64,000 nucleotides of DNA from positions 58,734,870 to 58,798,869 of the forward strand of contig NC_057710.1 in the NCBI RefSeq assembly GCF_004010195.1. The letters are read 5' to 3'. This DNA is from Chiloscyllium plagiosum (taxonomy: Eukaryota). Below the pieces are notes generated by a model that made no database searches, was not told the origin of the DNA, and saw only the letters and a program-made list of their open reading frames with translations. The translations under genes were made by a program, and so were the position numbers. Every line of letters starts with the position of its first letter. Position 1 is the first letter of the stretch. Positions 4,723-54,479 of this stretch are shown here, in pieces.

Positions 4723-5773
4723 ATGGACGTAGGTTTGCTCGCTGAGCTGGAAGGCTTGTTTTCAGACATTTCATCACCATACTAGGTAACATCATCAGTG
4801 AGCCTCTAATGAAGTACTGGTGGTATGGCCCGCATTTTATTTGTGTTTAGATTTCCTTGGTTTGGTGATGTTATTTCCTGTGATGTCAGTTCCTGTTTGT
4901 TGTCTCCAGGGCTAGTTAATGGGATCCAAGTCAATGTATTTGTTGATAGAGCTCTGGTTTGGAATGCAATGCTTCTAGGAATTCTCGTGCATGTCTCTAT
5001 TTGGTTTGTCCTAGAATGAACATGTTGTCCCAGTTGAAGTGGTGTCATTGCTCATCTGTATGTAAAGATACTACTGAGAGTAGGTCATGTCTTTTTGTGG
5101 CTAGTTGATATTCATGTATCTGGTGGCTAGTTTTCTGCCTGTTAGTCCAATGTAGTGTTTGTTACAGTTCTTGCAAGGTATTTTGTAAATGACATTCGTT
5201 TTGCTTATTGTCTGTGTAGGGTCTTTCAAGTTCATTAGCTGCTGTTTTAGTGTGTTGGTGGGTTTGTGGGATAATAAGAGGTCTGAGTCGTCTGGCAGTC
5301 ATTTCCAAGATGTCTTTGGTGTAGGGGAGAGTGACGAAGGTTTCTGACAGGAAAAGGCAGAAAACTAGCCACCAGGATACATGAACATCAACTAGCCACA
5401 AAAACACATAAGGAAGGACACCACTTTGACTGGGACAACACATCCATCCTTGGACAAGCCAAACAGAGACATGCACAAGAATTCCTCGAAGCATGGCATT
5501 CCAACCGGAACTCTATCAACAAATACATTAACTTGGATCCCATTTACCACCCTCTGAGAAAAAGAACAGGAAATGGCATCACCTCTGGAAATAACATCAC
5601 CAACCCAAGGAAACCTAAACACATAAATAAAAAGCTACCAGTGTTTCACTGGAGGCTCACTGATGATGTTACCTAGTACGGTGAGGGACATCTGAAAACT
5701 AACCTTCCAGCTTAGCGAGCAAACCTACCTCCAGAACCTCAATTTGAGCTGTAAATCTTCTCAAAACTCGCTA
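4723..5773. mobile_element. Penelope-like element with inverted pseudo-LTRs and a GIY-YIG remnant
   Basis: 4725-5345 is a minus-strand copy and 5345-5773 an inverted plus-strand copy of the same 3' region. TSD acagtgggtg at 4713-4722 and 5774-5783. Hammerhead motifs at 4798-4765 (-) and 5660-5692 (+, decayed). Confidence 0.85.
4761..4802 (-). ncRNA. Hammerhead ribozyme motif, sense to the host pre-mRNA
   Basis: Minus strand reads ctca-CTGATGA-T-GTTACC-TAGTAT-GGTGAT-GAAA-TGTC-tga: 3-bp stem I and 6-bp stem II with G-U pairs. Confidence 0.7.
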
Positions 5774-12399: not shown

Positions 12400-12710
12400 A
12401 AAATGGGAAGAACTGCAGATGCTGTAAATCAGAAACAAAAACAGAAATTGCTAGAAAAGCTCAGCAGGTCTGCCAGAATCTGTGGAGAGAAATCAGAGCT
12501 AACATTTTGGGTCCAGTGATCCTTCCTCAGAACTGGCAGGGTGGTGGCTTGATTGGTGGAGGTAAGAGGATGAAGAACATAATTACAGGCTTTGATCGAG
12601 ATCATTTTACCAGGCCACAGGTATTTTGCTGAGGAAGGGTCATTGGATCTGAAGCATTAACTCTGATTTCTCTGCACAGATGCTTTTCCAGCTATTTCTG
12701 TTTTTGTGTC
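12400..12710. mobile_element. PLE mini-insertion with inverted arms and two decayed hammerheads
   Basis: Left arm (minus; CTGAGGAAGGATCACTGGACCCAAAATGTT) and right arm (plus; CTGAGGAAGGGTCATTGGATCTGAAGCATT) are inverted around a ~95-bp spacer. Confidence 0.7.
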
Positions 12711-15470: not shown

Positions 15471-15673
15471 CTGAAAACAAAAAAATGCCAGAGATCACAG
15501 TGGGCCAGGCAGCATCCATGGAGAGAAAGCAAGCTAAAATTTTGAGTCTGGATGACTCATCAGACTTGAAACATTAGCTTGCTTTCTCTCTATGGATGCT
15601 GCCGACTCACTGTGGGCTCCAGCTGTTGCTTTCAGTTCAGATTCCAGCATCTGCAGTAATTTGCTTTTTTATT
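15471..15673. mobile_element. Older palindromic PLE mini-insertion
   Basis: Inverted arms (ggcagcatccatggagagaaagcaagcta / tagcttgctttctctctatggatgctgcc) meet inside a hammerhead remnant at ~15535-15578, followed by the cagcatctgcag tail. Confidence 0.75.
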
Positions 15674-15807: not shown

Positions 15808-15905
15808 TCATTCCTGAATAAGGGCTTATGCCCGAAACACGATTCTCCTGCTCCTCGGATGCTGCCTGGCCTGCTGTGTTTTTCCAGCACCACATTTTTA
15901 AACTA
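15808..15905 (+). mobile_element. PLE 3' fragment with decayed hammerhead
   Basis: cattcCTGAATAAGGGCTTATGCCCGAAACAC followed by the family tail. Confidence 0.75.
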
Positions 15906-17344: not shown

Positions 17345-17855
17345 GCCTGAAAATAAACAGACATTATTGGAAAAACTCAGGTCTGGCAGTATCTGTGGAG
17401 AGAAAACAGAGTTAGAGATTTGGATTCAGCGATCTTTCTTCAGAGCTAACTGGAGCTAGAAAAATGTTGGTATATGTACTGAAGATGGAGTAGAGGGAGG
17501 ACGGAGGAATTAACAAGAGGTAGAGATGAACCCAAAGAGAGAAGCACAGTTGGGCAAACAAGGACTGGGCAAAGGTCAGCCTGGGAAAATCATAGGGGTC
17601 ATTAGTGGCTGACAATGACCACTAATGACCCTTATGATTTTCCCAGGCTGACCATCTTTCAAAATACAAATTAAAGTTATGTCTTTTTGACCACAGTTGG
17701 TAGCAGCCCATATGATGACAAGACATAATCTGTGGGATTAGGGTAATAACTTGGGAAAAGGTGGTCAGGCCCTAAAATTACTGAAATTGGGATTGAGTTC
17801 TGCAGGCTGCAGGATCCTCAAGTGGAAAATTAGGTGCAGTTTTGCCGGCTTGATC
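17345..17855 (-). mobile_element. PLE fragment with hammerhead remnant and internal fold-back
   Basis: Tail plus CTGAAGAAAGATCGCTGAATCCAAATCTC at ~17443-17415; body similar to 26.5-26.85k. Confidence 0.65.
17574..17653. repeat. 35-bp inverted repeat with 10-nt spacer
   Basis: 17574-17608 versus 17619-17653, one mismatch. Confidence 0.9.
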
Positions 17856-22829: not shown

Positions 22830-25020
22830 ACTACTATTTATTTGTCTATTCATCCCAAGGAAGAAGAAACATACTAAGGGGGGAAATAGGCAACAGTGGC
22901 TGACAAGGGAAGCTAGAAGTTGACAAGCCTTTAAAAACCAACAAGAGGCCAACTTAAAAAGCAAAGGGGTGGTGGGGCAGTGTTTGGAGAAGATTAAATA
23001 TGAGAGTAAGCTAGCTATAAATATAAAAGAAGATTGTAAGAGTTTTTTTAATATCTATAAGATAAGAGAGAAACAAGATTGGACTGCTAAAAGAATGAGG
23101 TTGGAGAAGTAGTAGCAGGGATCAAAGTGGCGGAGGAACTGAATATGTACTTTACATCAGTTTTCATGGTGGAAGACACCAGTATCATACCAGAACTTCA
23201 AGAGAGTCAGAGCAGTGGCCATCAGTAAGGAGAAGTTGCTGGAGGAAGCTCAAAGATTTGAAGGTGGATAAAAGGATCAGATGGCCTAGACCTCAGAATT
23301 CTGAAAGAAGTAGCTGAGGATATTGTGGAGTTTTTGGAGGTGATCTTCCAGGGGAAGGAACTGGAGTCAGGAAGATCCCATAGTCTTAGAAAATGGCCAA
23401 TGTAAGACCACTGTTTAAGAAAGGAGGGAGGTAGAAGACAGGAAATTATAGGCTAGTTAGCCTGACCTGGGTCATTGGTAAGGTTTTAGAGTCCATTATT
23501 AATGATGAGATTGCAGAGTATTTGGAAGTAAAATAGGGTTGAGTCATGGCTTTGTCAAGGGAATGTCAGGCTTGACAAATCTGCAGGAATTCTTTGAGGA
23601 AGTAACAAGCAAGTTAGTCAAAGGTGAGCCAGTGGACATGATCTATTTGGATTTCCAGAAAGGAGGCTGCTAAATAAGGTAAAAGGTCATGGTGCTAGGG
23701 CAAGGTTCTGGCATGGATAATGGGTTGGCTGACTGGCAGAAGGCAGAGAACAGGGATAAAGTGATCTTTTTCAGGATGGCAGACAGTGAGTAATGGAGTT
23801 CAACAAGGGTGAATGTTGGGACCACAACAATTCACATTACACATTAACGATCTGGAGGAAGGAATAGAGGGCATTGTTGCTAAGTTTGCAGTGACATGAA
23901 GATATCTCGATGGGTAGGTAGTGTTAAGGAAGTGGGGAGGTTGCAGAAGGACTTGGACAGGCGAGGAGAGTGGACAAAGAAGTACCAGATGTAATATAAT
24001 GTAGGAAAGTGAGGTTATGCACTTTGGTAGGATGAATAGAGGCATAGCTGAAAATGTGTTGCTGGAAAAGCGCAGCAGGTCAGGCAGCATCCAGGGAACA
24101 GGAGAATCGACGTTTCGGGCATAAGCCCTTCTTCAGGAATTCCTGAAGAAGGGCTTATGCCCGAAACGTCGATTCTCCTGTTCCCTGGATGCTGCCTGAC
24201 CTGCTGCACTTTTCCAGCAACACATTTTCAGCTCTGATCTCCAGCATCTGCAGCCCTCACTTTCTCCTGAATAGAGGCATAGACTATTTACTAAATTGGG
24301 AAAGACTTTGGAAATCTGAAACACAAGGGGACTTGGCAGTTCTAGTTCAGGATTCTCTTAAGGTTAACATGCAGGTTAATTGGCTGTTAGGAAGGCAAAT
24401 GCAATGTTACCACTAATTTCTCGACTGCTAAAATACAATAGCAGAAATGTACTGCTGAGGCTGTATAAGGCTCTGATCAGACTGTATTTGGAATATTGTG
24501 AGCAGTTTTATCTAAGGAAGGATGTACGCGTCTTGGAGGGGGTTAAGAGGAGGTTTATAAGAATGATCTCAGTGATGAAGGGCTTGTCATATGAGAAGCA
24601 GTTGAGGACTCTGGGTCTGTACTCGATGGAGTTTTGAAGGATGAGGAAGGATTTCATTGAAACTTATAGAATGCTGAGAGGTCTGGATTGAGCAGACCTG
24701 GAGAAGCTGTTTCCACCAGTAGGAGAGACTAGGTCCTGAGAGTACAGCCTCAGAGTGAAGCACAGCCTCAGTTCAAAAGGATCCTTTTGAACTGAGATGA
24801 GGAGGAATTTCCACAGATGGTGAATCTGTGGAACTCATTGCCACGGAAAGCTATGGAGGCCAAGTATTAAAGACAGAGATGGATAAGTTCTTGATTGGTA
24901 AGGGGATCAAAGATCACACAAAGAAGGCAGGAGAATGGGTTGAGAAATCTATCGGGTATGATCGAATGGTGGGGCCTGAATGACCTAATTCTGTTCCTAT
25001 GTCTTCTGGTCTTATGTTCT
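22830..25020 (+). mobile_element. CR1 LINE (RT to 3' UTR), interrupted by a palindromic PLE
   Basis: ANVRPLFKKG, GNYRLVSLT and IYLDFQK-like motifs; 'LRLYKALIRLYLEYCEQF' ORF; CR1-like 3' end (cctaattctgttcctatgtct). Confidence 0.9.
24048..24267. mobile_element. Young palindromic PLE mini-insertion with two divergent hammerheads
   Basis: 94-bp arms 24046-24139 and 24140-24233, one mismatch, no loop. 15-bp TSD tgaatagaggcatag at 24033-24047 and 24268-24282. Cores at 24143-24170 (+) and 24136-24109 (-). Confidence 0.93.
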
Positions 25021-39267: not shown

Positions 39268-39900
39268 GAATAGAATATAATCCCTACAGTGTGGAAACAG
39301 GCCCTTTGGCCCAACAAGTCCACACCGATTCTCTGGAGAGTAACCCGCCCAGACCCATTCCCCTACATTTAACCCCTGACTAATGCACCCAACATACACA
39401 TCACTGAACACTGCAGACAATTTACCACTGTCAATTTACCGAAACTGCACATCTTTGGATTTACAAAGTTAAAAATCACACAATGCCAATTTATAGCAAA
39501 TGTTTACAGTGTGAGGTAACTGGAATTATATATTGAAAATATCAATATATAATTATATCCCACTGTAATCTTTTGCTATAAATTCTATGCCTTACAATCT
39601 TATTCTCCACAACCACCTGATGAAAGAGCAGTGCTCCAAAAGCTAGTACTTCCAAATAAACCGGTTGGACTATAACCTGGTGTTGCATGATTTTTTAAAC
39701 TTTGTACACCCCGGTCCAACACCAGAATCTCCAAATCAACTTTTGATTGTGTGAGGAAACCGAAGCAGCCACAGGAAACCCATGCAGACACAGGGAGAGC
39801 ATGCAAACTCCACACAGACAGTCACCTGAGGCTGAAATTGAACCTGGGTCTCTGGTACTATCAGGCAGCAATGCTAGCCACTGAGCCACTGTGCCACCTT
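39268..39900 (-). mobile_element. HE1-type V-SINE interrupted by a PLE
   Basis: Head at ~39900 (gtggcacagtggctcagtgg), tail at 39268; V domain split at ~39460/39740. Confidence 0.85.
39460..39739. mobile_element. Fold-back PLE mini-insertion (family of the 29.0k element)
   Basis: Inverted arms centred on aattatatattgaaaatatcaatatataatt. Hammerhead remnant CTGATGAAAGAGCAGTGCTCCAAAAGCTA at 39617-39645. Imperfect TSD ctttggatt / cttttgatt. Confidence 0.75.
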
Positions 39901-42391: not shown

Positions 42392-44488
42392 GTCATAGAG
42401 TCAGAGATATACAGCACAAAACAGACCCTTTGGTCCAACTCATTCAGGCCCCCATATATCCTAAATAAATCTTGTCTCATTTACTTGCACTTGGCTCATA
42501 TCCCTTTGAACCCTTCCTATTCATATACCCAACCAAATGCCTTTTAAAATTTTGTAATTGGACCAGCCTCCACCAGCTCATTCCACACACGCACCACCCT
42601 CTGTGAGGAAAAAGTTGTCCCTTTAATATTTTTCTCTCGCACCTTAAACCTATGTCCTCTAGTTCTGGACTGCCCCACTGTGGGGATAAAATCTTGTCGA
42701 TGTACCCTATCCATGCCCCTCATGATTTTTATAAACCTCTATAAGGTCACCCCTCAGCCTCCAACGCTACAAGGAAAATAGCCCCCGCAAATTCAGCCTC
42801 TCCCTCTAGCTCAAACCCTCCAACTCTGGCAACATCCTTGTAAATCTTATCCGAACCCTTTCAAGTTTCACAACATCCTTCCTATAGCAGGGGTCCAGAA
42901 TTACATGCAGCATTCCAATAGTAGCCGAACCACTATCCTGTATAGCCGCAATATGACCTCCTAACTCATATACTCAACGCACTGACCAATAAAGAAAAGC
43001 ATATCAAACACCTTCTTCACTATCCTATCTGTGACTCCACTTTCAAGGAACTATGAACCTGCACTCCAAGGTCTCTTTGTTCAGCAACACTGCCGAGGAA
43101 CTTACCATTAAGTGTGTAAGTCTGATTTGCCTTTTCAAAATGCAGCACCCCACATTTATATAAATTAAACTCTATCTACCATGCCTTGGCCCACTGGCCC
43201 ATCTGATCAAGATCTCATTGTATTCTGAGGTAACATTCTTTGCTGTCCACTATACCTCCAATTTTGGCCATAGAGTTCCACAGCATGGAGACATACCCTT
43301 CAGCCCAAACGTGTCCATGCCAACCAAAATGTCCATCCACTTTAACCCCATTTCCCTGCACTTGGCCATATCCTTCTAGTCCTTTCCTATCCATGTATTT
43401 GTCCAAATGCCTTTTAAATGCTATTAATGTACCCGTGTCAACCACTTTCACTGGCAGCTCATTCTGTAGGCATCCAACTCTGTGTAAAAACGTTGCCCCT
43501 CAGGTTCCCTTTTATTCTTTCCTCTCTAACCTTAAACTTATGCCCTCTAGTCCTGGATTCCCCAACCCTAGGAAAAAGACTGAGTGCATTCACCCAGTCC
43601 ATCCCTCTCATGATCTTAAAGACCTCTATAAGGTCCCCCTCAGTCTCCTACACTGTAAAGGAGAAAGTCCTAGCTTGTCCAATCTCTCCCTATAGCTTAG
43701 ACTGTTGAGTCCACATCACACCCTTGTAAATTTCTTCTGCATTTTTTCCTGTTTAATAACATCCTTCCTATAACAAGATGACCGAAACCCAACATAATAC
43801 TCCAAGTGCAGCCTCACCAACGTCCTGTATAACTGCAACATAACTTCCCAACTTCTTTACTCAATGCCCCAACTGATGGAGGCCAGTGTGCCAAAAGCTT
43901 CTTCACTGCCCTGTCTACATGTGACTCCACTTTGAGAGAGGTGTGATCCTGAACGCCAAGATCCCTCTGTTCCACTACATTGCTTAAGGCCCTACCATTC
44001 ACCATGAAACTCTAAACTTGGTTTAGCTTTCCAAATGCAATACCTCATAGTTATTTATATTAAACTCAACTTGCCATTTTTTGGCCCACTTCCCCAGCTG
44101 ATCAAGATCCAACTGCAATTTCTGATAACCTTCCCTACTTTCCACAATGCCGCCTATTTTAGTGTCATCAGCAAACTTACTAATCATGCCTTGTACATTC
44201 TCATCCATATCACTGATATAGGTAACAAACAGTAATGGGCCCAGAGTCGAAGAGTGTGGTGCTGGAAAAACAGCTGGTCAGACAGCACCCAAGGAGCAGG
44301 AGAGTCAACGTTTCTGGCATAAGCCCTTCATCAGGAATGGACCCAGCTCAGATCCCTTAGGCACTCCACTAGTCTCAGGCCTCCAGTCTGACAAGCATCC
44401 TTCCACTATTAGCCTCTGCTTCCTACCATCAAGTCAATTTTGTATCCAATTTGCTAGCTTGCCCTGGATTCCATGCGATCTAACTTTT
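42392..44488 (-). mobile_element. Two stacked CR1 LINEs (second 3' end at ~43268)
   Basis: ISKFADDTKIGG, QRDLGVQ and WQVEFN motifs; two 3' UTRs. Confidence 0.9.
44245..44335 (-). mobile_element. PLE 3' micro-insertion with hammerhead
   Basis: CTGATGAAGGGCTTATGCCAGAAACGTT at 44334-44307. TSD aatgggcccag / aatggacccag at 44234-44244 and 44336-44346. Confidence 0.8.
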
Positions 44489-45787: not shown

Positions 45788-45971
45788 TTAAACAAGAACA
45801 AAAAGTTGTTGGTGAAACTCAGCAGGTCTGGCAGCATCTGTGGGAAGAAAGCAAAATTAATATTTCAAGTCCAGTGACTCTTCTTCAGGTTCTGCCAGAC
45901 CTACTGAGTTTCACCAGCAATTACTGTTTTTGTTTCAGATCTCTAGCATCCACAGTTCTTTGTTTTATTTA
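45788..45971. mobile_element. Inverted-arm PLE mini-insertion
   Basis: ggtgaaactcagcaggtctggcag / ctgccagacctactgagtttcacc arms. Minus-strand CTGAAGAAGAGTCACTGGACTTGAAATATT. TSD actgaagtaata / actgaggtaata. Confidence 0.75.
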
Positions 45972-47469: not shown

Positions 47470-50400
47470 TTAGAACATAGAACAGTACAGCACAGTAACG
47501 GACCCCTCGGCCCACAACATTGCGCCGAACAAGATGCCAAATTAAACTAATCCTTCCTGCCTGTCCTTGGTCCACATCTCTCCATTCCTTGCATGTTCAT
47601 GTCCTTTTCTAAACATCCCTTAAACGCCCCTATCATACCTGTCTCCACCACTACCCCTGGCACCACTTTCCAGTCTGTGTAAAAGAAACTTGCCTCTGAC
47701 ATACCGTTTGAATTTTCCTTCTTTCACCTTTAATGCATGTCCCCTAGTATTAAACATTTCCACTCTGGGAAAAAGATTCTGACTGTCAGCCCTATTTATG
47801 CACCTCATTAATGTTATAGACTGCCATCAAGTTTCCCCTCAGCCTCTGCTGCTGCAGCAAAAGCAACCTGAGTTTTCTAGCCTCTCCTCTAATCCAGCAG
47901 CATCCTTGTAAACTACTTCTGCACCTTCTCTAAAGCTTCCACATCCTTCCTGAAATATGGTAACCAGAATTGAATGCAATGCTCTAAGTGTGGCCTGACC
48001 AAAACCTTATAAAGCTGCAACGTGACATCCTGACTTTTGTACTCAATTCCCCAACCATACTCAATTCCCCAACCAATAAAGGCAAACATGCCATATGCCT
48101 TCTGCCCTACCTAGCTTCAGGGAGCAATGGACTTGAACCTCAAGATCACTCTATACATCAATGCTTTTCAGTCCTGTCATTAACTGTATACTTTTCCTTA
48201 CCATTTGATCTCCCAAAGTGCAGTACTTCTCAGTTACCTGGATTAAACTCCATCTACCATATCTCCACCCATATTTACAACTGATCTATATCCAGCTGTA
48301 TCATTTGACAACCTGCTACACTATCCACAATTCCACTGATCTTTGTGTCATCTGCAAACTTACTAACTCACCCATCTATATTTTCATCCAAACGATTTAT
48401 ATATATCACAAACAGCAGAGACCCGGTATGGATCCCTGTGGAATACCACTAGTCACGGACTTGCAGCCAGAAAAACACCCTTCCACCGCTACCTTCTGCC
48501 TTCTATAGGCAAGTCAATTCTGAATCCAAGCAGCTAAGTCACCATGGATTCCATGCATCTTAATTTTCTGAATGATCTACCATGAGGGACCTTGTCAAAA
48601 GCCTTACGAAAATTCACGTACACAACATCCACTACTCCATTCTCATCAATCACCTTTGTCACCTCCTCGAAAAATTCAATCAAGTTAGTAAGACATGACC
48701 TGCCCCACACACAGCCACGCTGACTGTCCTAATTGGCCATGCTTTTCCAAATATGTGTAAATCCTATCCCAAAGATTTCTCTCCAGTAGCTTCCCAAGCA
48801 CCGCTGCAAAACTCATTAGTCTATAGTTTCCTGGATTATCCCTGTTTCCCTTCTTGAACAGAGGAACAACATTAGCTGGGACTTCTCCAGTGGCTAGCTC
48901 TTGGTCTAGGCCCCAGCAATTTCCTCTCTTGCCTCTCTCAATAACCTGGGATAGATACGAGCAGGTCTGAGGACTTATTCACTTTAATGCTCTTCAGGAG
49001 ACCCAACACCACTTCTCTTGTGATCTCAAAATGCCCTAGCATATTAGCATGCTCCACTATCCTCCCTATCCTCCCTATCCTTCCCCTGGGTGAATACCGA
49101 TGCAAAACACTCATTTAGGATCTCGTCCACATCCTCTGCCTCTAAGCACAAGTTCCCTCCTTTATCTTTGAGGAGTCCTACCTTCTCCCTAGTTATGCTC
49201 TTATTTTTAATGCCTTGGGATTCTCTTTAACCCTACTTGCCAAGGTCACTTCATGGCCCCTTCCTGTTCTCCTAATTCCCTGCTTGAGTTCTTTCTTGCT
49301 TTCTTTATATTCCTCATGGGTCTGTCCAATTTTAGCTTCCTAAACCTTATATATGCTTCTTTTTTTTCCAACTAAATTCACAACCTCCCTCGTCATCTCA
49401 GGGTCCTTCCTCCTGACTGGAACATGCCAGTCCTAAACTCTAGGTTGAAACTTTATTGCTGGAACAGCACAGCAGGTCAGGCAGCATCCAGGGAACAGGA
49501 GATTCGACGTTTCGGGCACAGGCCCTTCTTCAGGACTCCTGAAGAAGGGCCTGTGCCCGAAACGTCGAATCTCCTGTTCCCTGGATGCTGCCTGACCTGC
49601 TGTGCTGTTCCAGCAATAAAGTTTCAACTTTGATCTCCAGCATCTGCAGACCTCACTTAGTCCTAAACTCTAATCAGTCGGTCTTTAAACAGCACCCACA
49701 TGTCAAATGTGGACTTGCCCGATAACAAATCCACCCAATTAACACTCCCTAGCTCTTGCCTCATACTTATGTTGCCATCCCCCAATTTACTACCTTTCCC
49801 ACAAGGTCCTGACCTATTCTTCTTCATAGCTATCTTAAAACTTAGGGAGTTGTGTTCACTGTTTCAAAATGCTCTCTCAATGCAAGGTCAGTCACCTGGC
49901 CAGGTTCATTAGCCAATACAAAGTCCAGTATGGCCCCTCCTCTAGTGGGACTATCCACACACTGTTTCAAGAAACCCTCTTGAAAGCACTTTAAAAAATT
50001 CTGCCCTGTCTAAGCCTCTTGCTCGAAGGAAGTTCCAGTCCATATTGGGGAAGTTAAAGTCACCCATTACGACAACCCTGTCTGCCTAACATATTTGTTC
50101 CTCAATGTCTCAGTGGCTGTTTGGGGTCCGAGAGTATAATCCAATCAGAGTGACTGCACCCAACTTATTTTTTAGCTGTACCCATATTGCCTCAATGGAT
50201 CAGCCCTCCAGTATGTCCTGAGTGTAGCTGTGACATTCTTCCCAATTAGTAATGCAATCCCTCCATCTCTTTTACCTTCCACTCTATCTCATCTAAGACA
50301 GTGAAATCCTGGAAAGTTGAGCAGTCAATCCTGTCCCTCTCTCAACCAAGGAGAAAGTGAGGACTGCAGATGCTGGAGATCAGAGCTGAAAATGTGTTGC

Positions 50401-50900
50401 TGGAAAAGCGCAGCAGGTCAGGCAGCATCCTTTGCTACAACACCATAGTCCCATGTACTGATCCAGGCTCTAAGCTCATCTGCTTTACCAATACATTCTA
50501 TGCATTGAAAGAAACACATTTCAGCCCATTAGTACCATCATGTTCATTTACCTGTCTCTGCCTGTCCTTCCTTTCTGACTTACTAGTCCTAACATCTATC
50601 TTCCCCCTCAATCCCTTCACTTGCTGACCTGCTGCTCTCACTGATTCCCATTGCCTCCCTCCACTCTAGTTTAAACCCTCCCACCACTTTAATTTTAAAC
50701 CATTCCAAGTAGCACTAGCAAATCTACCTGTGAGGATATTGATTCCCCTCCATTTTATGTGCAACCCGTCCCTCTTGTACAGGTCACCCATGCCCCAGAA
50801 GAGGTCTCAATGATTGAAGAACCTGAAACCCTGCCCCTGCACCAGCTACTCAGCCACACATTCGTCTGTCCTATCTTACCATTCCTTGCCTCACTAGCAA
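47470..50900 (-). mobile_element. Long degenerate CR1 LINE (ORF1 end, endonuclease, RT, 3' UTR)
   Basis: Reverse-complement motifs KFADDTK, GIPQGSIPG, NYRLMSF and DFNFPN; tagaacatagaa tail. Interrupted by PLE pieces at 49443-49658 and 50351-50430. Confidence 0.9.
49443..49658. mobile_element. Young perfect palindromic PLE mini-insertion with two divergent hammerheads
   Basis: 92-bp perfect arms 49444-49535 and 49537-49628, 1-nt centre. 14-bp TSD agtcctaaactcta at 49429-49442 and 49659-49672. Cores at 49539-49566 (+) and 49533-49506 (-). Confidence 0.94.
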
Positions 50901-52293: not shown

Positions 52294-52415
52294 CGCAAGG
52301 TTTGTGAAGGTTTGTAGCTCAGCTTGAGGTTTAGAGTGTAGGTTTGCTCGCTGAGCTGTAGGTTTGATATCCACGGATAACAAACCTACAGCTCAGCAAG
52401 CAAACCTACACCCTA
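52294..52415. mobile_element. Fold-back PLE micro-insertion (family of the 4.7k element)
   Basis: 44-bp arms 52329-52372 and 52375-52418, three mismatches. 12-bp TSD aactgttccatt at 52282-52293 and 52416-52427. Confidence 0.85.
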
Positions 52416-54479
52416 AACTGTTCCATTATTACCAATTATCGAATATGACCAACTATTGGCTTCTCTTTAGACGTGGATGAAAGTACAATGCCAAATATGT
52501 ACCTTTTCATTTAGCATGAGAGTAGTTGGCAACTCAATTTAATGCCTTATCCAAAAAGGTGAATCAACAAGAATAGAGGGAATTACAGAAAAAGGAGTGA
52601 GGAAACAGAAGACAAAAGATGAAGAAGCAGAAGATTGTTACCCACAGAAAATAAATACTGATTAACTGTGTTCATTGTCACAGTAAACCAGCCAGGCTTA
52701 CTTTAACACCCATGTAAAAATGGACTTCCACATTAATAGCAGGAACCAGTCTTTATCTTAAGTATTATGCAACATCTGCAAACCACAGTAGTAGAACTCA
52801 TTAAGCTGTTTGGGATTGCACCTTTTAAGTTGACCTAGTTAGTAGCTCAGTTCACCCATTTTCAATTTCCTCAGTTGGCTATTGCAAAAATGTAATGATC
52901 GCTTCAAAACACAGCCATACCTTATACCAGGTAAAATGCCAACTACTGGATCACAGAAACAAATAAGGAACCAAACTCAAAGTTTTCTAGAGTGAAATGA
53001 AGTGCAAATACCAGCTAAGTATCAATTTCGGGGAATTTCATGGAGCTTTCCCTCTCTGGCAAGTTACCGTATGCAATTCTCCATTGCTCATCTCATTATC
53101 TATGTATCACAACTCTACAGAGTGGTGCTTGTACTATCGTGCTGTTGCCAACGGTGGAAGAACTCATGACTGCAGTTTCTTTCTGCGATTCCCACTGCAG
53201 CTGTGTCAAGCCCCGTCAGTCAGGAGCTGTCCTTCACAGTGCAATGTAAGAAGAATTTTCTCACAGATGTCTAACAGAGGCATGTCAGCAACCTGCACCA
53301 TCAACCCAAAGTTCTGGTGGATCGGGGAGATGGAGAGGAGGGCTATCATTCCTTAAGATGGTCAAGGACTTTATTTCAAGTGCAATTAGAGATGACCAAC
53401 AAATACCACCTTTACTAGTGATGCCCACATCCCACAACAGAATTTGTTTCTAAAAGTTCATGGGGCATCTGTGCTCAAAGGTAGTTAATAGTCAAGGGAT
53501 TATGTACTAACGACAAGTCAGCAGCGATAGGAGATATGGGAAAAGGAAAACAAAACTGAAGGAACTTAAAAAGGAAAGGAACACCAACAAATACTGCTCT
53601 CTTTGTGACTGTGGAAATGTTTATGCTCCATTCCTTTTATCATGTCTGCTAAATTAACAGGAAACAGATTGAGATAATATTGGTATTCCTATCTTGGGCT
53701 TTATTTTGGGAATTATCTTACAATTTTTAAATTAATGGATTTGAGATATTTATGGTAATTATTCAGCAGCTATGTGTAACATTGCTGGGATATTTGAAAC
53801 TTTATATTCTCATCTCTTATAGCTGCTGCCCTGTCATTCATTCATGATCTTGTTACCGTTTTCTTTTGCTGCTTCACCAAGCAAGGTTTTACTTTTTTCT
53901 TGTGTGAGTTGCACTTCCATTTAAAAAAATGTCACTGAACTAAAAAGCTGAATGAAATTCAATTGAGACCAGTGATGTAGCTGAGTGGAAAGTGTGCGGA
54001 TAACATTGTGAAAAGCTCTTTCATGTCTTTTATGATTAAAAGAGCATTGGTGGAAAATGTTGATCACAAAGTAAGTACCTGAAGAAATATTGAAACAGAT
54101 GCCCTTATTGGCAACACAGTTGATGTGCAGAAAATGCTTGACATTAATGAAGAATTTACAATAATGTCTGGAGGAACTGTGAAGGAACTTCCTATTGATC
54201 CCAATCCTGATGTAGGTATCCAAAATATTATAACTTCCTAGAATCTTTAAGTTTACTCTATTGTTGATGATGTGAAATTTTACTTTCTGCTAGAGATCCA
54301 GATAAATTATTGTCTGCAAAGGAGTAGCCTCAAGTTAAAAAGACAATGGAAGTCATCCCACTACCTATAGAAAAAGCAATTCTTACCCGAAGAATAGTAG
54401 GGAAATCATTGTTTCTTCAACTTCAGAAGACTCTTTAAATAGTCTTTGTTTCATCAATTCCCAGATGACTACACATTTT

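Follow-up and report, generated by a model that had tools for sequence, protein, structure and literature searches.

The hairpin at positions 49429-49672 of the window, the stretch of 64,000 nucleotides analysed here, is one among thousands of mirror-image Penelope-type stubs in the Chiloscyllium plagiosum genome. The point where its halves join likely marks the start of the copied RNA, at the leading edge of a hammerhead ribozyme, and not the fold or the cut of that ribozyme. Judging from sequence comparison, we consider it fairly probable that the palindrome is a single insertion, for which both nicked target ends primed a cDNA, both cDNAs ran off a likely capped 5' end, and the resulting ends were joined. 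The element and its palindromic architecture are of already known kinds; at stake are the way in which Penelope elements make inverted ends and the role of their hammerhead.

As the preliminary description had stated, the two arms are perfect reverse complements of 92 bp each, and a direct repeat of 14 bp, the putative TSD, bounds the palindrome (Table 1). The arms flank a single base, C49536. Only the right arm carries 30 extra nucleotides, which have no counterpart on the left and end 6 nt short of the usual tail end, and a G at 49443, between left TSD and left arm, is unmatched; neither feature figured in the preliminary description. Right arm and tail match a long copy of the CTGT subfamily (L042) with identity over 122 nt. 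The whole hairpin comprises 216 bases, and its RNA fold of -199 kcal/mol (z = -28) is equaled by none of 200 shuffles. On either strand, C3 of the hammerhead core CTGAAGA lies 3 nt downstream of the centre, in accordance with the 2-3 nt given initially. The junction GACTC occurs once among the 50 listed CTGT palindromes (counted by eye) and probably belongs, as a variant, to the frequent GAATC/GATTC class (7 of 50). The insertion target reads as a decayed ORF of LINE type in minus-strand orientation, which we take to be CR1-like. None of the retrieved loci offered an empty paralogous version of the target site, and the TSD call therefore rests on the repeat itself.

Table 1. Features of the 49-kb palindrome and of the comparison copy at 24 kb (window positions).
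Feature	Position	Strand	Basis
Left putative TSD, 14 bp	49429..49442	+	direct repeat
Left arm, tail-less pLTR end, CTGT subfamily, inverted; 2 nt upstream of C3 kept	49444..49535	-	self-alignment
Left-arm minimal hammerhead motif, C3 49533, helix I cut to 2 nt	49502..49535	-	descriptor numbering of PMC4209133
Lone unpaired central base, junction GACTC	49536..49536	.	arm comparison
Right arm, pLTR end as in left arm	49537..49628	+	self-alignment
Right-arm minimal hammerhead motif, C3 49539, helix II 49547-50/49555-58, GAAA 49559-62	49537..49570	+	
Tail, 30 nt, right arm only	49629..49658	+	tail as defined in PMC3846280, PMC11167929
Right putative TSD, 14 bp	49659..49672	+	direct repeat
TTAT-subfamily palindrome, comparison copy	24033..24282	+	own 15-bp TSD 24033-24047 / 24268-24282

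The palindrome at 24 kb has the junction GAATTC, with ATTC present in both arms and an overlap of 2 nt, and its tail is likewise confined to the right arm. The right arms of the two copies differ at 12 of 122 positions. Because the subfamilies differ (helix II loop CTGT versus TTAT, together with a different 3' part) and the TSDs are separate, the two palindromes represent independent insertions, as had been proposed from the first inspection. Several further repeats were observed in the window. At 12475-12684, two copies from an older related family (helix II GGGTCA) face each other head to head, with 98 nt of unrelated sequence separating their arms, and one arm stops at CCAGTT immediately before the hammerhead core. 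Shorter palindromes of other related families, with arms meeting downstream of or unevenly around the hammerhead, are located at 15508-15603 and 45806-45920. A solo tailed fragment of the TTAT type, 680 nt from the palindrome (50349-50430, minus strand), stops short of the hammerhead. More copies of the hammerhead repeat lie at 164-256, where the copy continues upstream into native sequence, at 15812-15889 and at 44260-44336, while the inverted repeats at 17574-17653, 52329-52418, 4880-5582 and 39488-39584 have no detected relation to it.

The arms are the terminal repeat (pLTR) of a Penelope-like retrotransposon of the EN+ type. ORFs upstream of TTAT-type repeats at two loci, L200 and L186, match GIY-YIG (PF01541; E 1.5e-4 and 1.7e-4) with 22.4 and 22.3 bits, just below the cut-off of 22.6, and the homologue P0003, 61% identical, scores above it. 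A CTGT copy is also preceded by the C-terminal peptide of these ORFs. The closest proteins come from Chiloscyllium, Rhincodon and Stegostoma, and each combines a weak RT match with GIY-YIG; in the shark homologues P0002-P0003 the RVT_1 match stays below cut-off (E 9e-5 and 8e-3). In L200, GIY-YIG is preceded by the cysteine-rich linker C-N-C-R-R-C-K-T-C, which has the zinc-finger-like form CX2-5CxxC; such a linker between RT and EN is a feature of the Neptune clade and also of Nematis (PMC8557442). An intact RT-EN copy of the palindrome's family was not found in 12 + 20 + 10 + 8 candidate loci, which contained N runs, internal deletions and stubs. RT matches adjoining hammerheads turned out to be other Penelope copies serving as targets. 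The copies show the arrangement of pLTRs, i.e., direct or inverted, with an optional tail of 30-40 nt and a TSD, and the hammerhead motif lies in sense orientation relative to the ORF. Genome-wide, exact matching returned 93,333 3' anchors and 60,845 hammerhead cores; in 7,898 cases, two cores stand head to head, separated by 0-30 nt.

Two other classifications were rejected. A MITE or foldback DNA transposon disagrees with the asymmetric tail, the variable junctions and the long TSDs of varied length, and a non-LTR retrozyme needs a head-to-tail tandem of at least two hammerhead units, whereas the 49-kb unit is a head-to-head pair. Head-to-tail hammerhead units of 205-320 bp each were observed elsewhere, at L200 (G000:C2:82794500-82800000), L149, L197 and L198. 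L200 and L149 have a common deletion junction between ORF start and repeat, which suggests a mobile, retrozyme-like mini-unit able to form a ribozyme dimer. At L186 (G000:C9:52332354-52335387) the tandem unit measures 1.6 kb, and the ORF start is joined to the GIY-YIG part, with the RT absent.

The minimum-energy fold of the native repeat (L042:1497-1545) has a helix I and a helix II of 4 bp each. Changes in helix I are compensatory across families, and helices I and II covary, such that the motif looks selected. Minimal type I hammerheads are carried by metazoan PLE repeats (PMC4209133). A scan of the window with Rfam gave no hammerhead family, but only hairpin-driven microRNA matches under the gathering score; thus, the hammerhead call rests on motif and fold. 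By hammerhead numbering, the right arm is predicted to be cleaved after C49566. The inversion reduces helix I from 4 to 2 bp, the value noticed at the outset. Any transcript of the 49-kb copy would form a 92-bp hairpin overriding the hammerhead fold, and both ribozymes of the palindrome are therefore probably inactive, which makes likely what had been put forward as a mere option.

Where arms end was studied in six 200-kb blocks (1.2 Mb), picked irrespective of content. They yielded 84 arms, which were anchored by their 3' part and then aligned to four real long copies; seven are terminated by N runs. C3 is reached by 60 arms, 32 of which end at offsets 0 to -10 from C3 (27 at -1 to -5), whereas the rate observed downstream would predict 4.0 (p = 3e-22). 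The most frequent end point is A(-4), with which the 4-bp helix I begins. No pile-up appears at +19 to +35, and a single arm of the 84 ends at the cut site (+28). The 53 young arms behave similarly: 21 of the 39 that reach C3 end at 0 to -10, and one of all 53 within +26 to +30. Longer templates exist, as 28 of the 60 arms extend beyond -10. Among the 50 listed CTGT palindromes, every arm keeps at most 8 native bases upstream of C3 (by eye).

Junctions thus cluster just upstream of C3 both genome-wide and in the block sample, in good agreement with the enrichment near the hammerhead that the preliminary description had predicted. Its further claim, that the fold point is set by the hammerhead structure, is not supported. 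Plain truncated, non-inverted copies share their stopping point with inverted ones, so that the hotspot is a property of each arm's 5' end rather than of the inversion, and the arms end independently of one another. Moreover, neither the cut site nor the 3' side of the helices, at which a structure would halt an RT, shows a peak. A stable native hairpin upstream of C3 as the cause of the stop was not found either, as no unusual fold occurs in this region (z = -0.40, 0.86 and 0.06).

The bases added next to A(-4) bear on the nature of this end. In genome-wide pattern counts, the first non-native base at -5 gives HGATTCCTGAAGAAGGGC 6,661, HA 2,151 and HT 1,797 matches; G makes up 63% of the non-native bases at this position, compared with 26% expected. 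The control, one base over, gives HG 1,533 and HT 4,343 (odds ratio 10.5), the HT count being inflated by CTTTCC junctions. At 30 G loci judged by eye, a lone G present in neither the flank nor the other arm occurs in 5, the G closes a short insert in 8, corresponds to microhomology with flank or other arm in 12 (two of them duplicates of one locus), and is ambiguous in 5. The excess of G before A(-4) points to an RNA 5' end, as a copied cap would leave it; untemplated addition of C at any RNA end would mimic the cap. Full-length capped L1 and SVA insertions bear such an extra G as the mark of a copied cap (PMC11702581, PMC4859970), and the accessible parts of PMC9719517 and PMC13756887 make no mention of a cap-derived G.

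In three families, A(-4) lies in the context TCATTC, TCAGTT or (C/T)AGTC, the first being that of the palindrome's family; the pattern of a fourth family had just 3 diverged matches. Compared with the initiator and TATA consensus sequences, the motif at A(-4) is initiator-like. An AT-rich box is located about 24-33 nt upstream of A(-4) and is TATAAA-like in one family. An initiator-like motif combined with an AT-rich box near -30 speaks for a promoter. In a comparison of the 50 nt preceding C3 at L154, L175, L164 and L081, a pyrimidine tract and a YAG at -5 to -3, which may be a splice acceptor, were seen in two older families. In the CTGT and TTAT subfamilies, positions -5 to -3 read CAT and not CAG, and CTGT has no AG within 50 nt upstream. 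The YAG of the older families ends 2 nt before C3, echoing the Penelope element of D. virilis, in which a 75-bp intron, adjoining helix I at its end, lies downstream of the start site (PMC8557442, PMC4209133). Starting at helix I is therefore not a universal property.

Public sequencing runs were available for a coded organism A, possibly a different species, whose DNA contains approximately 60% of the sampled words. In its DNA run X15, the top 5' loose end falls on A(-4) (119 contigs), and the consensus of these ends begins with the complement of G, while in run X1 the peak lies one base off A(-4). RNA reads from this organism, with the same reservation about species, have their top 5' loose end at A(-4) as well (98 reads), with a consensus lacking the leading complement of G. 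RNA run X19 revealed no site where many molecules begin, and 91% of its placed reads continue into unlike sequence, i.e., read through genomic copies; no read of run X20 was placed on the element. For a second family, ends in X15 peak at -4, -3 and -2 (184, 219 and 216), with G preceding -4, whereas the maximum lies at -3 in X17 and X19, and at -5/-6 in X1.

The pairing of arms follows a strict rule. Exactly one arm is tailed in 15 of 15 block pairs, in 30 of 30 pattern-selected loci and in both copies of the window, 47 of 47 in total. Counting solo and paired arms together, 43 are tail-less and 41 tailed, which matches the two internal start sites described for the PAc system (PMC11167929); solo copies occur in both forms. 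The tailed arm is the shorter one at the junction in at least 5 of the 15 pairs, and either arm can be the shorter. Hence neither arm was simply copied from its partner, barring a later one-sided loss of the tip; such a deletion at the hairpin tip could shorten either arm. The arms of a palindrome share subfamily variants, as had been noted for the 49-kb copy: 1,291 CTGT/CTGT palindromes stand against 3 of CTGT/TTAT type, two of which are otherwise of one subfamily. Activity of the subfamilies at different times could produce this concordance. Among 16 CTGT palindromes scored for arm variants, none of the variants is shared and 8 are unshared, and older palindromes have up to 6 differences between arms. 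An ancestral palindrome homogenised by conversion, named initially as a finding that would refute the first inference, thus left no sign in these 16. As no private variant is common to both arms in these young palindromes, one RNA and two sister RNAs are indistinguishable as templates.

The junction sequences vary widely inside one young subfamily, and the same junction types recur across subfamilies. In the 50 listed CTGT palindromes (by eye), the commonest centres are GAATTC (11), GAATC/GATTC (7) and GAATGATTC (5), and 18 of the 50 have 0-1 unpaired bases, which is more in line with end-joining between two cDNAs than with a snap-back primer. At many centres, the adjacent helix II has supplied a short insert (AGGGC or GCCCT), resembling the templated insertions of end-joining repair.

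The reading we favour runs as follows. The element's transcript would start at A(-4), four bases before the hammerhead core, and would probably be capped. Each nicked target end would prime one cDNA on a single RNA or a single RNP dimer, one at about +125, giving the tail, and the other at about +90, giving the tail-less arm; PAc is known to nick and extend both strands, with two internal RT start sites that bound the tail (PMC11167929). Both cDNAs would run to or near the RNA start, their ends may be trimmed by 0-3 nt, and repair would join them via short overlaps or small insertions; in the 49-kb copy, each arm retains 2 nt upstream of C3, with one base separating the arms. The centre would then sit at the ribozyme because helix I starts at the first base of the RNA, and not because the ribozyme drives a cDNA to fold back. 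Priming so near the RNA start would result in stubs of 95-130 bp, and the longer copies (28 of 60) would need read-through or tandem templates. In its most specific form the proposal is tentative, and we put it at somewhat less than an even chance: capped RNA of the shark Penelope would start at base one of helix I, one RNP would prime both target ends at one internal site each, and both cDNAs could thereby include a copy of the cap and come together in head-to-head orientation. If true, such "overlapping twin priming" would account for the inverted pLTRs, for a tail on one side and for the existence of 95-130-bp stubs in tens of thousands, and the ribozyme would be a 5'-terminal decapping switch that cuts off a 32-nt capped leader rather than an enzyme for processing tandems.

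Self-priming, proposed earlier for inverted pLTRs (PMC3846280), would have a cDNA stall at or just past the hammerhead, snap back and copy itself, the fold point being set by the ribozyme structure. It accounts for arms of the same subfamily, for junctions clustering at the ribozyme edge and, provided that the first strand is always tailed, for the single tail. We nevertheless regard it as unlikely, as non-inverted copies end at the same base and copying stops at the motif's 5' side, when the helices have already been copied and without accumulation on their 3' side. A hairpin primer would require more room than 0-1 unpaired central bases provide, the shorter arm is often the tailed one, the native region lacks an unusually stable fold, and tail-less solo copies (L252, L267 and L269) get to G-ATTC unaided. 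Slightly less probable again is a processed 5' end at A(-4), splicing-related or endonucleolytic, to which the RT adds an untemplated C, with two-end priming and joining unchanged. All run-off evidence is fitted equally well by this variant, and it draws support from the YAG of two families and from the intron of D. virilis, which terminates at helix I (PMC4209133). The CTGT and TTAT subfamilies, however, have CAT at this position and CTGT lacks an upstream AG, no common upstream exon precedes ATTC across 30 loci, and the initiator-like motif with its AT-rich box favours a promoter. Nor can the hammerhead cut at -5/-4, since on inspection the pairing of helices I and III would fail for cleavage between CUC and A.

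Two further explanations are far less probable than these. A preformed palindromic mini-element that moves as a unit, or an ancestral palindrome kept symmetric by gene conversion, would explain perfect arms and high copy number, but conflicts with the diverse junctions within one young subfamily, the recurrence of junction types in separate subfamilies, the unequal arm lengths, the tail on one arm and the unshared arm changes; we consider it very improbable and largely refuted. Lowest of all stands hammerhead self-cleavage as the event that sets the template's 5' end, and hence the centre, which we hold to be scarcely credible. The covariation of helices I and II speaks for a selected motif, yet virtually no arms, young or old, end at the predicted cut, and PAc inserts uncleaved RNA, no reads ending at the cut (PMC11167929).

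Tens of thousands of young insertions thus constitute a fossil map of 5' ends, which places the RNA end at base one of helix I and speaks against ribozyme cleavage and fold-back as its cause. Our literature search, which covered few subscription journals, found no paper giving an RNA end at helix I or the one-tail rule. The strict rule of one tail per pair is directly testable in the existing in vitro system of PAc.

The following comparisons refer to the accessible portions of the cited sources. Head-to-head inverted, 5'-truncated pLTRs with a palindromic junction, a tail of 30-40 bp on one end and a TSD around the unit are published features of EN+ PLE insertions (Arkhipova 2013, PMC3846280; Craig 2021, PMC8557442), and our copies share them. 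In contrast to the published units, the 49-kb unit consists merely of two stubs of 92-122 bp, the junctions are pinned 0-5 nt before the hammerhead C3 in thousands of copies, and the evidence favours two primed cDNAs over the self-priming suggested in PMC3846280. The hammerheads resemble those of metazoan PLEs (Cervera and de la Pena 2014, PMC4209133) in the CUGANGA core, one unpaired base before helix II, a palindromic minimal helix III, a short helix I and their occurrence mostly as solo motifs with some pairs on opposite strands. They differ by a helix II of 4 bp and by pairs 0-30 nt apart, compared with 100-700 there, and are known here from sequence. PMC6155905, in its accessible part, contains nothing concerning sharks.

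Non-LTR retrozymes (bioRxiv 10.64898/2026.07.22.740005) are likewise non-coding, hammerhead-bearing and PLE-derived, but they are head-to-tail tandems, whereas the head-to-head pair at 49 kb cannot form a cis dimer. LINE-1 twin priming also uses both target ends and joins inverted segments via microhomology, and complete L1 5' ends carry an extra G (PMC11702581, PMC4859970). L1 segments hardly overlap, whereas the overlap here is near-total, with both segments able to reach the RNA start; furthermore, our copies lack poly(A), and a GIY-YIG nuclease takes the place of APE. PAc, the Poseidon element of Anolis (Frangieh 2024, PMC11167929), shares with our copies two classes of 3' ends about 35 nt apart (approximately +90 and +125) and an uncleaved hammerhead copied into DNA. 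For PAc, no preference of start site between strands is reported, whereas 47 of 47 pairs here use one site each, and to a description of PAc that does not treat 5' junctions our copies add 5' ends that pile up at A(-4) with an extra G.
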